64,000 nucleotides of DNA, taken from assembly GCF_044324875.1 (NCBI RefSeq), contig NZ_CP172185.1, one strand, 5' to 3'. The notes beneath the pieces are model-generated. The model was not told where the DNA came from and ran no database searches. It worked only from the letters and a program-made list of their open reading frames with translations. This document shows, piece by piece, positions 7,266 through 39,815 of this stretch. The stretch comes from Escherichia coli. GTDB taxonomy: Bacteria; Pseudomonadota; Gammaproteobacteria; Enterobacterales; Enterobacteriaceae. Numbering within the stretch: the first letter of the stretch is position 1; each line of letters begins with the position of its first letter. Position numbers and translations under genes: made by a program.

Positions 7266-8254
7266 CTTATCTCCGATGTCAACTTATTGGTTATTATTTC
7301 AAGATTTAAATTTTGAAAAACGGTTTGAGCTGGCAAATCTGCAAGAGACATACTTGTAGAACGACACTCTACTTGATTCTTCCCATACCCGCCAATTAAT
7401 CCCGGATCGGTAGGTCCATAAACCGTGATATTGGGTCTATCCAGTGCCGCCGTTAAATGGCTTAACCCCGTATCCACCGACACTACAAATTTAGCCCCGG
7501 CCAGCACGCGGGCAACGCCTTCCAGACTCATCTTCGGCAATACTTCAACATAAGCAAATCCTTCCGCCAGTCGTTTCGCCCGTTCTTCCTCATGCGGCGC
7601 GCCCCACGGAAGTTTAATCCGTATTCCTGAATCTGCCAGTAAACCAATCAAATCTCGCCAGTGTTCTTCCGGCCAGTGTTTATCATCACGGGTCGTCGCA
7701 TGAAGAAATACGGCATATTCGCCAGCATCTGTAGGCAGGTTCGTCAGGAAATGCTGTGCAATAGCATAATCGCCCTGGGTTTGCGGTTTGCTATAGCCCA
7801 GACTTTTGGCAAACAGTTCGCGGGTGCGTTCTACGGCGTGCTGCTGTTTCGCAATATGATGCTTACGATTGTAAAACAAGCTTGCCAGTGGTTCGCGAGC
7901 GGTTTGCCAGTCCATTCCATGCTTTACGCCATGTGCCAGACGCGTCACCAGCGCCGCGCTTTTTACCAGCCCCTGAGCGTCGATAACTGCGTCATAGTTC
8001 TCTGCTTGTAGCGCTTCACGAAACGCTTTCCGTTCAGCTTTTATGGGGGCCGAGAACCAGGCTTTACGCCAGCGACGTATTGCCACAGGAATAACTCGCT
8101 CAACAGCGGCGTGCCAGGAAGGAATTTGTGCGAACCCTTCTTCCACCACCCAGTCAAACTTAATCCCTGGGATTGCCTGCTGGGCATCAGTGAGTGCGGG
8201 CAACGTATGGAGAACATCGCCCATCGACGATGTTTTAACGATCAAAACCCGCAT
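7262..8254 (-). CDS. waaC: LPS heptosyltransferase I
   Basis: N-terminus MRVLIVKTSSMGDVLHTLPALTDA matches WaaC; C-terminal tail differs from K-12 and overlaps waaL start by 4 bp. Confidence 0.9.
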   Translation of the reverse strand: MRVLIVKTSSMGDVLHTLPALTDAQQAIPGIKFDWVVEEGFAQIPSWHAAVERVIPVAIRRWRKAWFSAPIKAERKAFREALQAENYDAVIDAQGLVKSAALVTRLAHGVKHGMDWQTAREPLASLFYNRKHHIAKQQHAVERTRELFAKSLGYSKPQTQGDYAIAQHFLTNLPTDAGEYAVFLHATTRDDKHWPEEHWRDLIGLLADSGIRIKLPWGAPHEEERAKRLAEGFAYVEVLPKMSLEGVARVLAGAKFVVSVDTGLSHLTAALDRPNITVYGPTDPGLIGGYGKNQVECRSTSMSLADLPAQTVFQNLNLEIITNKLTSEIR

Positions 8255-8257
8255 CCG

Positions 8258-9304
8258 TCAGGCTTCCTCTTGTAACAATAGCGCGTTGAGTTCTTCCAGT
8301 GCGCGCTGGGGAGTAATGTCGATCAAGCTCTGGTGATAACCCTCCGCAGCGTCACCTTTACGCACTTTGTGATAGCCGGTAATCAGGCGGATCACGCGTG
8401 CTTTATGGGATAGCGGCGGTGTGAAGTCCGGGCTACTCGGACCATACAGGGCAACCAGCGGACGATTGAGCGCCGCCGCAACGTGCATCAGGCCAGAATC
8501 GTTAGTGACAATGGCTTTACAGGCTGCAATCAGGATAACCGCTTGATCAAGCTGTGTTTCCCCCGCCAGGTTCCGGCACCATGCCTGCTGCTCGGTATTC
8601 AAAGCGGCAAGAATCTCATTGCCCGCTTCATGATCTTTCGCCGAGCCAAACAGAACCACCTGATAACCTTCATCAATCAGCTGCTTTGCCAGTTCCGCAT
8701 AGTGGTAGTGTGGCCAGCGTTTTGCCGGACCAAACTCCGCACCCGGGCAAAAGCCAATCATCGGACGTTCTGATGAAAGCGAAAATTGATTACAGGTATA
8801 TGATTTTTCACCTTCGCTCACCTGCAACTGCGGCCATAACAATGGCTGCGGCAGATCTTGTGCTGTACGCATAATGCCTTTGTCATAGGCCAGCGCGACA
8901 TAGCGTTCCACCATTAGCGGCCAGGCTTCTTTATCGAGCACGCGTACATCGTTAAGTAAACCGTAGCGCATCTCGCCGCGCCAGCCGGTGCGATGAGGAA
9001 TACCCGCGAAGAAAGGCACTAATGCGGACTTGAAGGAGTTGGGTAAGACGTAGGCGCGGTCGTAGCGCTTTTCACGCAGACTATGACCCAGTTTGCGGCG
9101 TTCGCCGATTTCCAGCGCTCCGTGACCGAGAGGCATAGGGATAGCTTCGTTAACTTCCGGCATCCGCGATAATAATGGACGGCACCATGCCGGTGCCATC
9201 ACGTCGATTATCGCCTGGGGATAGCGCGCCTGGAGCGTGCGATAGAGACTTTGCGACATCATCATGTCGCCAACCCAAGACGGGCCGATCACCAGTATTT
9301 TCAT
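8258..9304 (-). CDS. waaF: LPS heptosyltransferase II
   Basis: 348-aa ORF MKILVIGPSWVGDMMMSQSLYRTL, WaaF-like. Confidence 0.9.
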   Translation of the reverse strand: MKILVIGPSWVGDMMMSQSLYRTLQARYPQAIIDVMAPAWCRPLLSRMPEVNEAIPMPLGHGALEIGERRKLGHSLREKRYDRAYVLPNSFKSALVPFFAGIPHRTGWRGEMRYGLLNDVRVLDKEAWPLMVERYVALAYDKGIMRTAQDLPQPLLWPQLQVSEGEKSYTCNQFSLSSERPMIGFCPGAEFGPAKRWPHYHYAELAKQLIDEGYQVVLFGSAKDHEAGNEILAALNTEQQAWCRNLAGETQLDQAVILIAACKAIVTNDSGLMHVAAALNRPLVALYGPSSPDFTPPLSHKARVIRLITGYHKVRKGDAAEGYHQSLIDITPQRALEELNALLLQEEA

Positions 9305-24526: not shown

Positions 24527-25717
24527 CTATGCCGCATTCCCTTTCGCCATCGGAGCCAGTGCCGCAGGCAACTCTTTACCCAGCCCTTGCACCAGCGAAT
24601 CTTGCGTAATTTCACTGATCGATTTCGCGCCAGTCAGCGTCATTGCCACTTTCATCTCTTTCTCGATTAGATTAAGCAGATTTGCCACGCCCGCCTGGCC
24701 CGCTGTTGCCAGCGCATACAGGAAAGCACGACCCAGCAGTACGGTGTCGGCACCGAGCGCAATCATACGCACGACATCAAGCCCGTTACGAATCCCGCTA
24801 TCCGCCAGAATGGCGATATCACCTTTCACGGCATCCGCAATAGCAGGCAGTGCACGGGCAGAAGAGAGCACACCGTCCAGCTGGCGGCCACCGTGGTTAG
24901 AAACCACAATTCCATCAGCACCAAAACGTACTGCATCGCGCGCATCTTCCGGATCGAGGATCCCTTTGATCACCATCGGGCCATCCCAGAAATCGCGGAT
25001 CCACTCAAGGTCTTTCCATGAGATGGACGGATCGAAATTATTCCCCAGCCAGCCGATGTAATCTTCCAGTCCGGTCGGTTTGCCGAGGTAAGCCGAGATA
25101 TTACCTAAATCATGTGGACGACCGTTCAGGCCCACATCCCACGCCCATTGCGGATGCGTCACCGCCTGTAAGTAACGGCGCATTGCCGCATTTGGGCCGC
25201 TCATACCCGAGTGTGCATCACGGTAACGCGCGCCCGGTGTCGGCATATCCACGGTGAAAACCAGCGTCGAGCAGCCTGCCGCTTTTGCTCGCTCCAGTGC
25301 GTTACGCATAAAGCCGCGATCGCGCAGCACATAAAGCTGGAACCACATCGGACGTTTGATAGCTGGAGCGACTTCTTCAATCGGGCAAACGGAAACCGTC
25401 GAGAGAGTAAACGGAATGCCATGCGCATCCGCCGCTTTGGCAGCCTGAACTTCGCCACGACGCGCATACATGCCACACAAACCCACCGGAGCCAGCGCCA
25501 CCGGCATCGACAATTTCTCATTAAACAGCGTCGTTTCCAGGCTTAAGTCAGACATGTTTTTCAGAATACGCTGGCGCAGCGCCACTTCTGACAAATCTTC
25601 CACGTTGCGGCGCAGCGTGTATTCAGAATATGCACCCCCATCCATATAGTGGAACAGGAACGGCGGCAGAATGCGTTGTGCTGCGGCGCGATAATCGCTG
25701 GCTGCGGAAATAATCAT
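24527..25717 (-). CDS. lldD: L-lactate dehydrogenase (FMN-dependent)
   Basis: 396-aa sequence matching LldD. Confidence 0.95.
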
Positions 25718-26490
25718 GCGTTTTTCTCCCTCGAATGCTCATTATGGTCACCAGGCAGGCGGGTAATGCGTGCATGGCGAGCTTGATCTTCATCGAATCG
25801 TTTCATGGTAGTGTGAACAAAGCTAAGGTGCGCCATCATTGCTTTACGCGCCCCGTCAGCATCACCGGCAAAAATGGCGTCAATGACTGCCTGATGTTGT
25901 TCGGTCAGCTGTGAAAAAACCGGGGGTACCAGATACATCCGCTGGCGGCTATGCTTCACAGAGGATTGCAGGACATCGAAGAAACCGCGCATGGTTTGCA
26001 GCAGCACGATGTTATGTGAGGCTTCGGCAATCGCCAGATGAAAACGAACGTCCGCTTGTGAGGCGAGATCCGGGTCTTCACTTAGCGTTGCTTCAAAGCA
26101 AAGCTGAATTTTCTCTTTTTCGCCTGGTGTGGCGCGCATTGCCGCATGCCACGCGGTGCTGGCTTCAATGGCGTAGCGGGCTTCCAGAATATCGAAACTG
26201 TAATCCGGATCATCGGCCATCAGCGTTTTCAGCGGCTGGACGATGTTTTGCTCCGACCATGTGTCATGACGCCAGCGAATAAACGTCCCGCCGCCGCGTC
26301 GACTAAGCAGCACGCCTTCGCTCACCAGTTTTGCCAGCGCCTCGCGCAGTGAATTACGCGATACGCCGAGTTGCATCGCCAGTTGACGTTCAGCGGGCAA
26401 CTTCATGCCCGCCTCCAGGTTTTTTTCATCAATCAGCGCCCGCACACGATCGGCAACCTCGTCTGACAGGCGTCTGGGTAAAACAATCAT
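25714..26490 (-). CDS. lldR: GntR-family regulator of the lld operon
   Basis: Trimmed to [11 protein letters not shown] (258 aa); overlaps lldD start. Confidence 0.9.
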
Positions 26491-28145
26491 TAAGGAATCA
26501 TCCACGTTAAGACATAAGCCTGAAGCGTGGTGATCACGCCCACCATACAGGTGAAGATCAGGCTGTGTTTGACGGTAAAGCGGAACAGATCTGACTCTTT
26601 GCCTACCAGGCCTACCGCCGCACAGGCGATAGCGATAGATTGCGGAGAGATCATCTTACCGGTGACACCACCGGTGGTGTTGGCGGCAACCAACAACAGG
26701 TCAGAAACGCCAATTTGTTGTGCTGCAGTGGCTTGCAGGGCGGCGAACAGGGCGTTAGATGAGGTATCCGATCCGGTCAGGAAGACACCAAGCCAGCCGA
26801 GGAACGGCGAGAAGAAGGTGAATGCATGGCCGGTGTGCGCCAGTGCCAGCGCCAGCGTTGATGATAGTCCGGAATAGTTCGAGATAAAGGCGAACGCCAG
26901 CACCATACCGATGGAGTAGATAGGCAGAGCCAGTTCTTTCAGCGTGCTGCCGAAGGTGCTGATAGCGTCAGATGGTTTCATCTTCAGCCAGACAATCGAG
27001 AGCAGGGCAGCAAAAAGAATGGCGGTACCGGTGGCAGAGAACCAGTCGAACTTAAACACGGCGGCATACGCTGTCGCTTCGCTGACCACTGGCGGCATAC
27101 GGGCAACCAGTTTATCGAGGTACGGCACCGGAATATTGATCACCCATTCATACAGCGCACCACCCGAAGCGAACAGGGCTTTAAACGGTGGAATACTCCA
27201 CAGCGTTACGGTGGCGGTCAGGAACAGGAACGGTGTCCAGGCGCGAAGCACCTGACCTGCGGTGTAACCGGTGTGAGCCAGCGTCATATCAACCTGTGAC
27301 GCCCCCAAGTCACCGAAGCGGAATACGCGCACTGGTTGCCAGCGTTTGAGGAACAGCGTCAGGCAGAGCAGTGATACCAGCGAAGAGATAATGTCTGGCA
27401 GTTCCGGCCCAATGAAGTTAGAGCTGAGGTATTGAGCAATGGCAAACGAACCACCTGCAACCACGACCGCAGGCCACGTCTCTTTGATACCGCGCCAACC
27501 GTCCATAATCGCCATGATCCAGAACAGCACGATAATGGTCATAAACGGCAGCTGACGCCCCACCATCTGACCAATCTCAAAGCTGTCGATGCCTGTTACC
27601 TGCCCGGCGACCAGAATCGGAATACCCATCGCGCCAAATGCCACTGGCGCGGTGTTAACAATCAGGCACAGTCCGGCGGCGTACAGTGGTTTAAAGCCCA
27701 GACCGACCAGTAATGCGGCGGTAATTGCTACCGGTGCGCCAAAGCCTGCGGCTCCTTCAAGGAAAGCGCCGAAACAGAAACCGACGATCAGCATTTGCAG
27801 GCGCTGGTCAGGGGTTATCGAAAGAATAGACGAGCGGATGATGTCAAACTGCCCGGTTTTCACCGAGATCTTATAGACGAACACTGCCGCAATAATGATC
27901 CACGCGATGGGCCACAAACCGTAGAAGAAGCCATAAATCACCGAGGCCAGCGCGTTAGCGACCGGCATTTTATAGAACAGCAAAGCCACGGCAAGGGCGA
28001 TTGCCACCGTCCATGAGGCGGCGACATAACCTTTGAGTTTGAGCTTAATCAGCGCAAAGAAGAAAAACAGGATGGGAAGCGATGCTATCAGGCTGGAAAG
28101 CCAGATATTCCCGGCGGGATCGTAGTTTTGTTGCCAGAGATTCAT
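26490..28145 (-). CDS. lldP: L-lactate permease
   Basis: Trimmed to [10 protein letters not shown] (551 aa); polytopic LctP-family transporter. Confidence 0.93.
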
Positions 28146-28220
28146 TGCAGGTCTCCTGGAGTCCACGCACATCGTGTAATGAGTCTGATGCTCATCTCCT
28201 TGTCACACGTTGTGTAAAAG

Positions 28221-28234
28221 TGGTACTGCCAATT
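28221..28234. promoter_or_regulatory. Candidate LldR operator half-site pair in the lldP upstream region
   Basis: tggtactgccaatt, a TGGT-N-CCA type motif about 80 bp upstream of lldP ATG. Confidence 0.3.
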
Positions 28235-28344
28235 GTGTTGTGTAGGGATAATGACAATGAATGGTTAACTAAATGTTATGCATTGGCAACATTGATGTGA
28301 GTTTTAATTGGAGATCTGTGAACCAGAGGTCAGATAAGCGAAGA

Positions 28345-28359
28345 ATTGGTAGGGCCAAT
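28345..28359. promoter_or_regulatory. Candidate LldR operator (perfect inverted repeat)
   Basis: attggtagggccaat: ATTGG-N5-CCAAT palindrome about 200 bp upstream of lldP ATG. Confidence 0.4.
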
Positions 28360-28382
28360 CTTGGTGGAGGGAGATGTCTGGT

Positions 28383-28418
28383 AAAGAAAAGGGCAATCCT
28401 CATCAGAGAATTGCCCTT
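28383..28418 (-). terminator. Intrinsic terminator of the adhesin gene
   Basis: On the minus strand, stem gggcaat/attgccc followed by a T-run, about 25 bp after the stop. Confidence 0.7.
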
Positions 28419-28441
28419 AGTCACACTAAGTTAATGGATCA

Positions 28442-31400
28442 TTACCACTGAATACCGGCACCGAGTGCGGCGGAGTATTCACCCTGGCTATTGGTACTAC
28501 CTTGTAATTTGTAGACCCAACGACCATTGGCGCTCACCATCGACACACCTAAAGCAACAGCCGATTCACCATTGTAAGTACCGCCACCAATAGAGGCCAT
28601 GCTGGCACCTGGAGTGTAAGCCTGCGGCAGACCGGTCATTGCCATTGCAGAAGCGATACCACCGCTCAACTTGCTTTCGGTTTTGGACAGTTTGTTATCC
28701 ATCTCAACCATCCGCTGATCGGTGTATTGCTTCGTTTCCTGCACGCTTTGCTTCAACTGCGCATAGTTCACTGCGTCGTTGTTGTTGACGCCAGCAGAGA
28801 CGTTGCTGATGCGAGTCGTACCGCCATTACCACCACCGAGAGTGATGTTGCTGTAGTCTATAGAACCATCAGCTTTGGTGTCGTAACGAACGCCGCCTGC
28901 CTCAGAAGACTTCAGCTGCGAAACGTTAACCGCATCGGTGGCATTAACACCTGCAGCAACGTTGGTGATACGACGCTGGTTGGTAGAAGAACCCACAGAG
29001 ATGGTGTTTTCTTCGTTGGCCACGGAACCGGTACCCAGCGCGACGCTGTTGTCAGCGGCAGCAATGGAACCAGAACCAATTGCAACACTGTCTTTACCCT
29101 GCGCGTTGGCATCTACGCCATCGGTGTTGGTCTTGAAGTATTTGGTGCTACCGGTGGTTACGATATCGCCAATGCCGTTTTCGATATTGGTAACGCGAGT
29201 ATCCAGATTCGTCACCTGATTGTTCAGGTTAGTAATGCTCTGGGTATTCTGGGAAACCTGCGCGTCCGTTACTTTCAACTGACCCACGTTAACCGCATCG
29301 GTATCAGCCGAACCAGCCGCGACGTTGGTGATCTGACGTTGACCGTCTTCACTGCCGACAGAGAACTCACCCACAGAGTTCTGCGGTGCGTCCATGTTGT
29401 AGGCGGCGTAGCCAGTTTGAGCACCACGAGTCGTCTGTGAGCCATTACCCATAGCAATGCTGTTTGCATGGTTTGCACGCGCGTTGCTACCGATAGCAAT
29501 GCCATTAAGTGCATTCGCGTCCACGTAGGCACCATAACCGATACCAATACCCGCATTACCATTAACGATAGTTTTCGCGCCCATTGCTAGCGAGTCTTCA
29601 CCTACTGCCAGTGAATCTTCTTCCGTTGAGTTGGCGTGGAAGTATTTGGTCGGCGTGGTAGCGACTGCACCAATGGCATTTTGCAACTGGCGAACCGTAA
29701 CGGCGTCATGGGCTTCGGAACCATCGGCTACGTTGATGATTTGACGATATTTACCGTCATCACCAATAGACAACGCACCAAGTAGTTCGCCATCCGTGGT
29801 GTCATAACCAATCACAACACCTTCTTCCGACACGCTGGTGTCACGAGAACCTTTAACTATTACACGGCTGGAAACGGAACTGCTACCCAGGGCGATACCC
29901 GTATCAACGGAGCTGCTGCTACCTTGACCAATGGCTACGCTGCTTTCGCCTGAGGCGACAGCGTTATAACCCACAGCCGTAGCGCCAATACCTGAAGCGC
30001 TGGCATCGTTGAACGCTAAGCCGTTGTCGTTGGTACGTACATAGTTAATGTCCGCACCGTTATCTTCGATGTAGGTTTCGCTGGTGTTACCGGCAAGCTG
30101 ATTGATGATTTCGCTGTTCTGCTGGATCAGCATATTGGTGTTAAACAGCTGAGAACCGTTGATGGCGTCAGTGCTGCCTTCGCCAATGTTACCATCAGCA
30201 ACATTTGTGATGATGCTGGCCTTGCCGTCATGGCTGGCGTTGTAGGCACCTGCGCCGTCATTGGCTGTTGCATCCCACAGCAGAGCGTTATCGTCGAGCG
30301 CATCCAGGGCGTCACCGACGTTGTTGTACTCGGCATTTGCAATGGTGTAACTCGGCGCAGTGATAGTGCCATCAGCGTTGACTTCTGCGTCACCACCCAG
30401 CGCATCAGCGATGTACTTGTTGGTGGTATACAGTTGTGAACCGTTAATGGCATCGCTGCTGGTGGAGGAAATTGCACCGTTAGCGACGTTAGTGATTACA
30501 CTGGCTGTTTTATCTTTTCCGTGAGCGGCGCTAAATGCACCATTACCATCATTGGCTGTGGCATCCCACAGCAGGGCGTCATCCAGCGTGGTATCGATCG
30601 CTTCCAGCGCGTCACCGACGTTGCTGTAACTGCCGCCAGCGATGGCATAAGTCGGTGCGGTGATTGTGCCGTCAGCATTGACTTCTGCGTCACCACCCAG
30701 AGTATCGGCAATGTACTTGCTGGTGTCATAGAGCTGTGAGCCGTTAATAGCGTCGCTGCTGGTAGAGGAAATTGCACCGTCTGCAACATTAGTAATGATG
30801 CTGGCCGTGTTATCTTTTCCGCGACCGGCGCTAAACGCACCGTCACCGCCCTTGGCGGTCGCATCCCAGAGTAGGGCGTCACCCAGTGATGTGCTAAATG
30901 ACGTGTTAATGGCAGCCAGAGCATCACCGACGTTATTGTAGTCAGTACCACCAATAGTGTAGGTTGGCCCGGTTAATACACCCGCATCACTGATATCAGC
31001 ACCACCGCCAAGGTATGACGTAAATGAATCAGCTAAGCCATAAAGTTGTGAGCCATTAATGGCGTCAGTGCTATCAGAGGATACCGTGCCTGCCAGTAAG
31101 TTGGTGATTTTGCTGTCAGTACCGTTGGTGCCGTGTTTGGCACTGAATGCACCCGCCGTAGCGTTCCACAGCAGGGAATCGTCACCGAGACTGTCAACAG
31201 CGTCAGTCAGGTTGGTGATGTTGGTGGTGTTCGTGGCGATATTGGTGGTGTTGGTTGCCACGGCATCGTTAGTGGTTTTCAGCTGAGAGCCGTTTACCGC
31301 GTCAGTGCTGCCAGCCGTCAGGTCACCGTCTTTGACGTTGGTGATTTTGCTGGTGGCTTCGGTACCGTGCGCGGCGCTGAATGCACCCGCCGTAGCGTTC

Positions 31401-33466
31401 CACAGCAGGGAATCGTCACCGAGACTGTCAACAGCGTCAGTCAGGTTGGTGATGTTGGTGGTATTCGTGGCGATATTGGTGGTGTTGGCTGCTACGGCAT
31501 CGTTAGTGGTTTTCAGCTGAGAGCCGTTTACCGCGTCAGTGCTGCCAGCCGTCAGGTCACCGTCTTTGACGTTAGTGATTTTGCTGGTGGCATCAGTACC
31601 GTGCGCGGCACTGAATGCCCCCGCAGTAGCGTTCCACAGCAGTGAATCGTCACCGAGACTGTCAACAGCGTCAGTCAGGTTGGTGATGTTAGTGGTGTTC
31701 GTGGCGATATTGGTGGTGTTGGCTGCCACGGCATCGTTAGTGGTTTTGAGCTGAGAGCCGTTAACCGCGTCGGTGCTGCCAGCCGTCAGGTCACCGTCTT
31801 TGACGTTGGTGATTTTGCTGGTGGCATCAGTACCGTGCGCGGCACTGAACGCGGTGCCATTCCACAGCAGGGCATCGTCTTTAAGGTCGTCAACGGAATC
31901 CGTCAGGGTATTGATACTGTTAGTGTTGGTGGTGATATTGGCAGTATTGGTCGCTACGTTATCGTTGGTGGTTTTCAGCTGAGAACCGTTAACCGCATCC
32001 TTACTGGTATCAGAAATAGCGCCGTCTTTAACGTTGGTGATGGTACTGGTAGTATCTGTACCATGTGCCGCACTATATGCCTTTTTAAGGGAGTCCCATT
32101 GTAACGTATTATTGTCCAGGCCCGTTAAGGCGTCGCCAACAGTGCCGAAAATACCACTTTTCAGCCTGTAATTTGGGGAAGTAACGACGCCTTGCGCATT
32201 GACGGTAGCCCCCCCACCAAGATTGTCCGCTACTGACTTACTGATAGCATAAAGCTGTGATCCATTGATGGCATCAGTACTGGTAGTGCTGATATCACCT
32301 GCTGCCATATTGACAATTTGTCGCTGAGCTGTTGTGTTACCCACAGAAACAGTATCCGCGTCAGTCGCTACAGAACCAGCACCCAGAGCAACTGAATTTT
32401 TCCCTTGAGCACTGGCTTGAGCACCAATTGCAGTGCCATTTTCTAAACCGGCATAACTGCCTTGTCCAAGAGCAATAGCATTTACACCACCTGTAATACT
32501 ACCATTACCCAGCGCGATAGCATTTGCGCCGTCAGCTTTATTCCCTTGACCGATGGCAATTGCGCCAGCCGCTACTGCCTGACTTTGATTGCCCAGAGCA
32601 ATCGTGTTGTCGACATCTGCAATACTGCCGGAGCCCAACGCGATACTATTAAGTCCATTTGCCTCCGCGTTAGTACCAACTGCCGTCGCATTTTCAGCAG
32701 CTTTGCTCTCTGCACCCATAGCAATCGCGTTTGCGGCGCTGGCGGCGGATTGTCTGCCGAATGCGAGGCTGTCTACGCCAGCTGCAGCACTGTTGCGGCC
32801 TACTGCAATCGCGTTAGCTGCAGATGCGGCGCTACTTGCACCCAGCGCCATTGCATATTCTTTCGACGCATTAGCCGTGGCTCCGAGGGCGATACTCATA
32901 ATTCCTAAGGCCTTGCTTTCACGTCCAAATGCGATGGCGTCATCAGCACCAGTCTCTGCGTAATCCCCTTGTGCAATAGAAAATTCACCTGTTGAGTTTG
33001 CATAACGACCAAGTGCGATTGAAAATCCACCCGTTGACGTTGCCGATGCACCTATAGCGAGGCTTCGCTCACCTGCTGAGGTAGTGTTAATCCCTAACGC
33101 CACTGATGCTTCGCCAAGCGAATGGGTCTTAGCGCCGAGGGCTGTTGACCACCTTCCGTCAGCAGTTGCGTGATAACCTACTGCGGTGCTGGAGCCACCC
33201 CCGGTGTCTGTAAAACTATTTGCTTTTACATCTTCACCGATAGCAACCCAGCCTGTTCCTGTTCCCTGGCCATAATTGACGCCCTGACCGTTGTCCCTTC
33301 CTGCCTGAGCCTGTACCCCAAACGACGACAACATTCCCCCAGCAACCAGAGCAGAAATTAACAGCTTACTGCGCCCGGATTTCTTGCCACGGCTCTTCGC
33401 CGTTTCGCTGGCAACGGTGTAACTGCCCGTCGCCGGATTCCAGATAACTTTAAATATTTTGTTCAT
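28442..33466 (-). CDS. Trimeric autotransporter adhesin, YadA-like (UpaG/EhaG/SadA family)
   Basis: 1674 aa; N-terminal extended signal peptide [21 protein letters not shown]; long repetitive stalk with INGSQL-type motifs; C-terminal anchor ending GIQW. Confidence 0.9.
30140..32300. repeat. Tandem intragenic repeat array in the adhesin stalk
   Basis: Roughly 300-bp degenerate units from about 30147, then three near-identical 234-bp copies (motif at 31153, 31387, 31621) and a diverged fourth. Confidence 0.85.
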
Positions 33467-33509: not shown

Positions 33510-34193
33510 TTATTTTTTGTTTTTTCGCTGCCGAGTTTCAGCAGGTTGAACAGTGTCGAACTGGAGATTGTCCATATTGATGGACAACTTCAGATACTTC
33601 AGGTTATTAGGCGAAACGCCTTTTAATGTCAGATTAATGTCTTGCCATTGGCCAGGCATTAATTGCAGAGTGGAATTCATGGTGGTGTTGAAAAGTAATT
33701 GTTGCCACTTTGCCAGAGCTTTGGCATCGGTGGGTCTTTCATTGCCCCATGTCGCATGAAAGCCAATATTTGATACGGGAACGCTTAAAAGGTTAACCAG
33801 CGAAATACGAATAACACTGCCATTTTCAACCGCATCAATAGCCAGCACCCGGCCTGCCAAACCGACCGATCCGTTATTTAAAATGAAATATTGTGTTTGT
33901 GCTGGGTTAAATTCTGTAAAGACAAATTCGTCCTGCTTGTCTTTAACCGCTTTCACCACGCCAGCGAGCGTCTTGGTACTATTTATGACAGTAGTTTGTT
34001 GTTTTTCAAAATGTTCTATCTTTCGCTTATCGAGTTCCTGCTGTTTCTCAAGCGCCTCAATTTTGCTTTTTTGCAACTCTTGCTGTGTAACGAGGTCGTC
34101 GACCTTACTCGCTTTTTCAATATAGTCACACCCTGCCAATAAGCAGAGAGGCACTATTATTAACACGCTTAACAGTGTTTTCTTTAGGTTCAT
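33510..34193 (-). CDS. Coiled-coil lipoprotein, SadB-like putative adhesin biogenesis helper
   Basis: 227 aa; signal peptide with LLAGC lipobox; Q/E/K-rich coiled-coil segment; stop 43 bp upstream of the adhesin start on the same strand. Confidence 0.65.
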   Translation of the reverse strand: MNLKKTLLSVLIIVPLCLLAGCDYIEKASKVDDLVTQQELQKSKIEALEKQQELDKRKIEHFEKQQTTVINSTKTLAGVVKAVKDKQDEFVFTEFNPAQTQYFILNNGSVGLAGRVLAIDAVENGSVIRISLVNLLSVPVSNIGFHATWGNERPTDAKALAKWQQLLFNTTMNSTLQLMPGQWQDINLTLKGVSPNNLKYLKLSINMDNLQFDTVQPAETRQRKNKK

Positions 34194-39638: not shown

Positions 39639-39654
39639 TGTGATATCGGTCACA
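39639..39654. promoter_or_regulatory. CRP binding site (perfect consensus half-sites) in mtlA promoter
   Basis: TGTGA-tatcgg-TCACA. Confidence 0.75.
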
Positions 39655-39755
39655 TAAATATAGGGGGTAGAGAGGTAATTGACGTGATGCTCATCACAAA
39701 ACTATTGTGTAAAAAAGCAACAAGGCGGCGATTTTCGCTAAAAATGGCATTTAAA

Positions 39756-39771
39756 TGTGAGTAATGTCACA
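39756..39771. promoter_or_regulatory. CRP binding site (perfect consensus half-sites) in mtlA promoter
   Basis: TGTGA-gtaatg-TCACA. Confidence 0.75.
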
Positions 39772-39799
39772 TTTTTGTTTTGTTGGTTTGTTGAATCTT

Positions 39800-39815
39800 T
39801 GTGATCTGAATCACA
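39800..39815. promoter_or_regulatory. CRP binding site (perfect consensus half-sites) in mtlA promoter
   Basis: TGTGA-tctgaa-TCACA. Confidence 0.75.

Follow-up and report, generated by a model that had tools for sequence, protein, structure and literature searches.

The two palindromes upstream of lldP in an Escherichia coli chromosome very probably represent O1 and O2, the already described operators of the lldPRD promoter

In the Escherichia coli chromosome window analysed here, a stretch of 64 kb taken over its whole length, the L-lactate permease gene lldP is preceded by two palindromes that had been proposed as candidate operators of the regulator LldR. This raises the question whether these elements are the sites through which LldR controls the lactate genes, and whether the adhesin gene that ends close by contributes to their transcription. 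Open reading frames, Pfam domains and RefSeq annotation give the order adhesin, intrinsic terminator, lldP, lldR and lldD on the minus strand, and one further gene lies upstream of the adhesin:

33510-34193, minus strand: gene of a 227-aa DUF3251 protein, upstream of the adhesin gene (RefSeq annotation)
28442-33466, minus strand: YadA-like trimeric autotransporter adhesin of the EhaG/UpaG type, 1674 aa (ESPR, YadA_head, YadA_stalk and YadA_anchor domains)
26490-28145, minus strand: lldP, L-lactate permease (Pfam Lactate_perm at 1e-235 and RefSeq annotation)
25714-26490, minus strand: lldR, GntR/FadR-type regulator (GntR and FCD domains)
24527-25717, minus strand: lldD, FMN-dependent L-lactate dehydrogenase (FMN_dh domain and RefSeq annotation)

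Both palindromes are thus located directly upstream of an operon that encodes the cognate regulator together with the permease and the dehydrogenase (Lactate_perm, GntR plus FCD, and FMN_dh domains). The LldR protein of the window is identical to that of K-12 in 255 of 258 residues (99%), and the DNA-binding domain, residues 1-123, does not differ at all. The original prediction had let lldP begin at 28172, an in-frame upstream ATG of the longest open reading frame that also set the left border (28173) of the region described there. This start has to be corrected, as the annotated RefSeq start is the ATG at 28145, which has a ribosome binding site ahead of it:

28146-28156, minus strand: Shine-Dalgarno sequence AGGAGA (28156-28151) and spacer to the lldP ATG at 28145 (conservation 0.998)

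The surroundings of the operon differ between strains. K-12 lacks both the DUF3251 gene and the adhesin gene and has yibL and a REP element as upstream neighbours instead, and the DUF3251 gene product had no Pfam match at E<=0.001 in the domain scan. Of 5426 complete E. coli genomes, 5420 contain a match to a 401-bp query around the operator region, with a YadA-like/EhaG adhesin and lldP as annotated genes. Strain WP8-S18-ESBL-07 carries an adhesin of 1743 aa compared to the 1674 aa found here, while the lldP-adhesin intergenic regions of the two strains are 100% identical; in other strains the length ranges from about 1330 to 1790 aa, and these differences suggest repeat-number variation in the stalk or head. 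The adhesin gene is genomic context and stands outside the lldPRD regulatory module. On E. coli plasmids, 35 places show about 84% identity to the 5' end of lldP (e.g. NZ_OZ546942.1, 78477-78590), which points to diverged plasmid-borne lldP copies.

The first palindrome, a perfect ATTGG-N5-CCAAT inverted repeat at 28345-28359, is found exactly as predicted and reads ATTGGTAGGGCCAAT on the plus strand. The second one had been given as a TGGT-N-CCA motif at 28221-28234; the motif is real and reads TGGTACTGCCAATT, but this description was a loose one, since the complete box is AAGTGGTACTGCCAATT and extends from 28218 to 28234. At full length, the two boxes are as follows:

28344-28360, minus strand: predicted LldR operator O1, 17 bp (sense strand GATTGGCCCTACCAATT, plus strand AATTGGTAGGGCCAATC)
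28218-28234, minus strand: predicted LldR operator O2, 17 bp (sense strand AATTGGCAGTACCACTT, plus strand AAGTGGTACTGCCAATT)

A repeat search also recovers the pair, both as a direct repeat with 126 bp from start to start and as an inverted repeat.

For the assignment to LldR, the comparison with published sites, suggested together with the original prediction, gives a positive result. Alignment with K-12 pairs O1 of the window, GATTGGCCCTACCAATT, with AATTGGCCCTACCAATT, and O2, AATTGGCAGTACCACTT, with AATTGGCAGTGCCACTT, which amounts to one substitution per box. For the lldP promoter, Anzai et al. (2023) list AAtTGGcCctACCAaTT and AAgTGGcactgCCAaTT as LldR boxes and state that these correspond to the pair of sites described by Aguilera et al. 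(2008); the aligned K-12 sequences are exactly these two boxes (PMC10272880). Moreover, San Martin et al. (2013; PMC3582500) cite AATTGGCCCTACCAATT as the sequence that LldR needs, and the lldP promoter gave the strongest LldR gSELEX peak in the genome, with binding confirmed by EMSA/gel shift (PMC10272880). Window and K-12 share the locus, the downstream gene order, the 126-bp spacing and an identical 15-bp O1 core, and O2 agrees in 16 of 17 positions. The proposal of LldR operators in the lldP upstream region is therefore borne out by one-substitution forms of the published sites together with a GntR plus FCD regulator encoded downstream. We are highly confident that, judged by sequence, the two palindromes are the O1/O2 operator pair of the lldPRD promoter, which means that they are already known. 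As the published binding evidence concerns the K-12 alleles, binding of LldR to the alleles of the window is a prediction.

The operator core of FadR-subfamily GntR regulators is TGGT-N3-ACCA, as the published LldR and PdhR boxes also have it. On the plus strand, the cores of O1 (TGGTAGGGCCA) and O2 (TGGTACTGCCA) of the window each deviate from TGGTnnnACCA by one mismatch, and K-12 O2 deviates by two. Counted manually against the LldR box AAnTGGTCnGACCAnTT, a consensus taken from PMC10272880, both O1 and O2 of the window match in 11 of 14 positions; for the K-12 boxes, 12/14 and 10/14 are given (PMC10272880).

Palindromes can also turn up by chance in an AT-rich intergenic region, and ATTGG-N5-CCAAT and its partner might be nothing else. 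Part of the statistics would allow this: using the relaxed 12-position pattern AANTGGNNNNNCCANTT with at most one mismatch, we found five matches in the window compared to 2.4 expected, so that the pattern is not enriched. However, ATTGGTAGGGCCAAT is the sole perfect ATTGG-N5-CCAAT in the 64 kb, where shuffles predict 0.10 per window, and two of the five relaxed matches share a single 296-bp intergenic region. By a rough estimate, the joint chance of two boxes in one such region would be in the order of 1e-5. The three further LldR-box-like matches (6792, 45439 and 47829) can be put down to chance, as 2.4 are expected, and we estimate from their coordinates that they lie inside coding regions. 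Since the relaxed pattern is not enriched window-wide, the case for operators is built on location and homology and not on motif counts.

To follow the boxes beyond E. coli, we used the first 29 nt of lldP as a degenerate anchor pattern, so that retrieval was independent of the operators. The comparison set comprised 57 lldP upstream regions (56 loci and the window) from about a dozen genera, covering Escherichia, Salmonella, Citrobacter, Klebsiella, Raoultella, Enterobacter, Kosakonia, Pluralibacter, Trabulsiella, Yokenella and Superficieibacter. Within this set, both boxes are present at every locus with enough upstream DNA. Counted from the ATG, the first position is -211 to -218 for O1 and -86 to -92 for O2, and the spacing between them is 126 bp in 49 regions and 125 bp in the other eight. 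Conservation was expressed as the mean majority fraction per segment in an alignment of 55 sequences:

O1 core (15 bp): 0.988
O2: 0.90
ArcA-like box, 28264-28278: 0.91
Shine-Dalgarno region: 0.998
DNA upstream of O1: 0.45-0.50
O1 to the -35 region: 0.64

The O1 core and O2 are islands of conservation compared to about 0.45-0.64 in most flanking segments. A constant position and spacing in 57 upstream regions whose flanks have diverged, and the identity of the boxes with experimentally bound K-12 sites, are not what chance palindromes would leave behind. Cross-species conservation and published binding data thus refute a chance origin, and the probability that we assign to it is vanishingly small.

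Two contigs in this collection carry unexpected labels. One is labelled as an Oscillospiraceae MAG (L010) and has an lldP promoter 96% identical to that of E. coli, and the other, labelled Chryseobacterium sp. 18061 (L061), has an lldP promoter 85% identical to a Citrobacter locus. Probably, enterobacterial contigs have entered these public assemblies by misbinning or contamination.

A conserved operator need not serve one regulator only, and O1 could chiefly or additionally be an operator of PdhR, which would then repress lldPRD, so that the palindrome would integrate pyruvate and lactate. We regard this as well possible, although we lean somewhat against it. The PdhR box AATTGGTnnnACCAATT, found at the pdhR-aceEF-lpd, ndh and cyoA promoters, resembles O1 in being a palindrome of the same 17-bp type recognised by a paralogous FadR-subfamily GntR regulator. 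It differs in the centre, as AATTGG-N5-CCAATT of the PdhR box encloses TnnnA and O1 has CCCTA as its central 5 bp; furthermore, the strongest and primary binder of O1 is LldR, with lactate rather than pyruvate as effector. In the 2008 work of Aguilera, a pdhR mutation is said to have been without effect on an lldP-lacZ fusion, which counts against a role of PdhR. In support of it, a PdhR gSELEX peak was detected at yibL/lldP with the box AATTGGccctACCAATT, scored 13/14, and lldPRD mRNA increased 3.3-fold in a pdhR mutant (Anzai et al., 2020; PMC7660256). PdhR is also among the lldPRD regulators listed in the later study, in which, however, the LldR gSELEX signal is by far the strongest at the lldP locus (Anzai et al., 2023; PMC10272880). 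In the window, the G at O1 position 1 additionally costs one match to the PdhR box. In any case, occupation of O1 by PdhR is compatible with the LldR explanation and does not exclude LldR.

Turning to the layout of the promoter, the abstract of Aguilera's 2008 work reportedly places the transcription start 110 nt ahead of the ATG, with O1 between -105 and -89 and O2 between +22 and +38. Counted from the ATG at 28145, these numbers would put +1 at 28255 and the operators at exactly 28360-28344 and 28234-28218, an agreement that speaks well for their internal consistency. Together with the core promoter, this gives the following elements:

28255, minus strand: lldPRD transcription start, presumably (from the offsets reportedly given in Aguilera's 2008 work and the ATG at 28145)
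28283-28288, minus strand: candidate -35 hexamer TTGCCA, of which TTG is invariant across species
28264-28278, plus strand: ArcA-box-like GTTAACTAAATGTTA between the operators and over the core promoter, 14/15 to a 15-bp consensus

A consensus scan called no sigma-70 promoter between 28000 and 28600, and for this reason we keep the assignment of the -10 and -35 elements as inferred; a missing sigma-70 consensus would be expected of an activator-dependent promoter. For scoring the ArcA-like box, we assumed the 15-bp consensus to be GTTAATTAAATGTTA, with two TGTTA-type direct repeats 11 bp apart. This box is the single match in the window, compared to 0.14 expected, with a cross-species conservation of 0.91, and the alignment shows it to be identical in K-12. 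This is in line with published work, according to which ArcA represses lldPRD and has an operator located between O1 and O2 (PMC8689689; PMC3798270).

Because glucose repression has been reported, we also looked for a CRP site, but TGTGA-N6-TCACA with up to two mismatches does not occur between 28146 and 28441. Between O1 and the -35 region, the minus strand carries two TCACA motifs (28317-28321 and 28296-28300) at a distance of 21 bp, which show little or no variation in 55 enterobacterial sequences, and no CRP-type site was detected there. Elsewhere in the window, the region that corresponds by synteny with WP8-S18-ESBL-07 to the mtlA-yibI intergenic region (39639-39815) contains four TGTGA-N6-TCACA sites with 0, 1, 0 and 0 mismatches; these are presumably the several CRP sites for which the mannitol operon promoter is known.

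The published work also defines how the two sites act. Repression needs LldR at both sites flanking the start, whereas lactate-bound LldR at the upstream site activates (PMC3424551; PMC5412874). A synthetic construct required the presence of both sites and a position of O2 downstream of the transcription start (PMC7969014), and repression was found to depend on helical phasing, with looping presumed (PMC8689689). Two statements of the original prediction need adjustment in this light. Both motifs had been placed upstream of lldP, which is correct with respect to the coding start; as the repression sites flank the start site in published work, however, O2 is to be placed downstream of it, in the transcribed 5' leader. 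Likewise, control by a GntR-family repressor through two operators holds for the two sites and for an LldR with GntR and FCD domains, but LldR is a dual regulator and not a repressor only.

Transferred to the window, an LldR dimer would occupy each of the two 17-bp pseudo-palindromic boxes, with O1 as the high-affinity, activation-competent upstream site. Relative to the transcription start, the centre of O1 would be located about 97 bp upstream and that of O2 about 30 bp downstream, and since the centres are 126 bp apart, corresponding to 12 helical turns, both dimers would face the same side of the DNA. As long as lactate is absent, the dimers at O1 and O2 may interact and loop out the core promoter, which would result in repression; with L- or D-lactate, the loop would be released and LldR at O1 would activate transcription. 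The ArcA box between the operators would add anaerobic repression, and PdhR might also be able to occupy O1. DNA looping is a published hypothesis, deduced from phasing mutants and not visualised structurally. Our own evidence comprises sequence identity, position, spacing, deep conservation and an intact regulator, while binding, looping and the dual role are taken from the literature.

This arrangement resembles established looping systems (gal OE/OI, lac O1/O2/O3, ara O2/I1 and FleQ at pel), in which two dimer sites likewise bracket the core promoter. With these, lldPRD shares a spacing of integral helical turns and phasing-dependent repression (PMC8689689; PMC3424551). In contrast to them, inducer-bound LldR stays at the upstream site and turns into an activator, and looping at lldPRD is deduced from phasing mutants.

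The operators are separated from the adhesin gene by a hairpin. An adhesin terminator adjoining the operator region had been predicted correctly:

28381-28418, minus strand: intrinsic terminator downstream of the adhesin gene, a 13-pair hairpin (28418-28389) and then UUUUCUUU

The hairpin has a centroid energy of -20.9 kcal/mol (z = -4.6) with 7/8 U in the tract, and no shuffle folded equally well. It begins 23 nt after the adhesin stop codon (TAA, 28444-28442), and O1 follows another 28 bp on. All eight aligned E. coli sequences (the window and seven genomes) have kept the hairpin, including K-12, where it follows yibL and the REP element. Across genera, a crude detector gave a terminator-like hairpin ahead of O1 in no more than 12 of 55 regions, and the idea that the terminator forms part of a conserved module with O1 was rejected on this count. 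In many strains, including O157 and O145, a REP/BIME-like insert of about 70-130 bp lies between the adhesin stop and the hairpin (loci L003-L007 and L001 compared); it is absent at 28419-28441 of the window and in strain KE55.

The original prediction considered read-through from the adhesin gene into lldPRD, and such transcripts could in principle make a material contribution to expression of the lactate genes. Adhesin and lldPRD are co-oriented, the distances of 23 nt from the adhesin stop to the hairpin and 28 nt from there to O1 are short, and the REP spacer of many strains is missing here. This is opposed by the predicted strength of the terminator between the adhesin gene and O1, as described by its 13-pair stem, energy, U tract and z score, and by the same terminator and promoter function in K-12, which is devoid of the adhesin. 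Furthermore, constructs of about 400 bp that contain nothing but the promoter show the same regulation (PMC10272880). Among the papers searched, we found none tying EhaG/UpaG transcription to lldP and none in support of read-through. Taken together, we consider a contribution of adhesin read-through to lldPRD transcription quite unlikely.

The O1 palindrome and the hairpin also attract a match to an RNA family. The Rfam model STnc380 (RF02055) covers 28319-28427 on the plus strand over its full length (29.5 bits, E about 5e-4 to 1e-3) and also finds the corresponding position ahead of lldP in Salmonella enterica subsp. arizonae, with 21.4 bits. Instead of operator and terminator, the two elements could accordingly be parts of a small RNA of the plus strand, antisense to the lldP promoter. 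The RF02055 consensus indeed draws the O1 sequence AAUUGGUAGGGCCAAUU as a hairpin and includes a further hairpin, GGGCAAU...AUUGCCC, resembling the terminator; operator palindrome and terminator stem account for the match. Its score, however, is half of the gathering threshold of 60 bits, and six related loci gave no match at gathering level; a sub-threshold match is located at 8225-8326 of locus L027. The strand is opposite to lldP, no promoter-like site was found on it, and the U tract of the hairpin occurs on the minus strand only. Within O1, the supposed stem is invariant in sequence in 57 upstream regions and the supposed loop bases are conserved as well, while the sole variable pair (positions 1 and 17) is uncompensated (A/C 7, T/T 5 and C/T 5). 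An invariant stem with an uncompensated outer pair argues for a protein-binding site rather than an RNA stem. In the open literature searched, we found no STnc380 data, as only STnc3800 matched. Given the sub-threshold score, the minus-strand U tract, the missing plus-strand promoter and the lack of compensation in the O1 stem, the small RNA was rejected as highly improbable. Conversely, the Rfam STnc380 family may describe operator plus terminator rather than a small RNA.

With O1 and O2 read as LldR operators, the substitutions by which the window departs from K-12 deserve a closer look. In an exact-word search of 5426 complete E. coli genomes, the G at O1 position 1 (28360) of the window occurs in 244 and the A of K-12 in 4878; at O2 position 11 (28224), the A of the window occurs in 332 and the G of K-12 in 4370. 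The operator alleles of the window are minority natural variants, each carried by about 4-6% of genomes, and among the matches listed at least three strains have both. Across genera, the same positions vary in the 57 upstream regions, with A 39, T 7, G 6 and C 5 at O1 position 1 and G 34 and A 23 at O2 position 11. From K-12 to the window, the match to the LldR-box consensus falls from 12/14 to 11/14 in O1 and rises from 10/14 to 11/14 in O2. Conceivably, this haplotype, with a weakened outer base of O1, an O2 nearer to TGGTnnnACCA and no REP spacer, might shift O1/O2 and PdhR occupancy and with it, specifically for a lineage, the basal expression of lldPRD or its induction by lactate, a proposal that we regard as rather unlikely.

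The lldPRD promoter has been dissected since 2008 and is a common part of lactate biosensors, and in terms of discovery the identification of its operators matters little. As by-products, the analysis places the operators, the ArcA-like box, the terminator and the correct start of lldP at exact positions in the window, and it yields the frequencies of two natural operator alleles, variants which biosensor engineers could test. For the family, it yields a two-box architecture with a spacing of 125/126 bp that is invariant across about a dozen enterobacterial genera.
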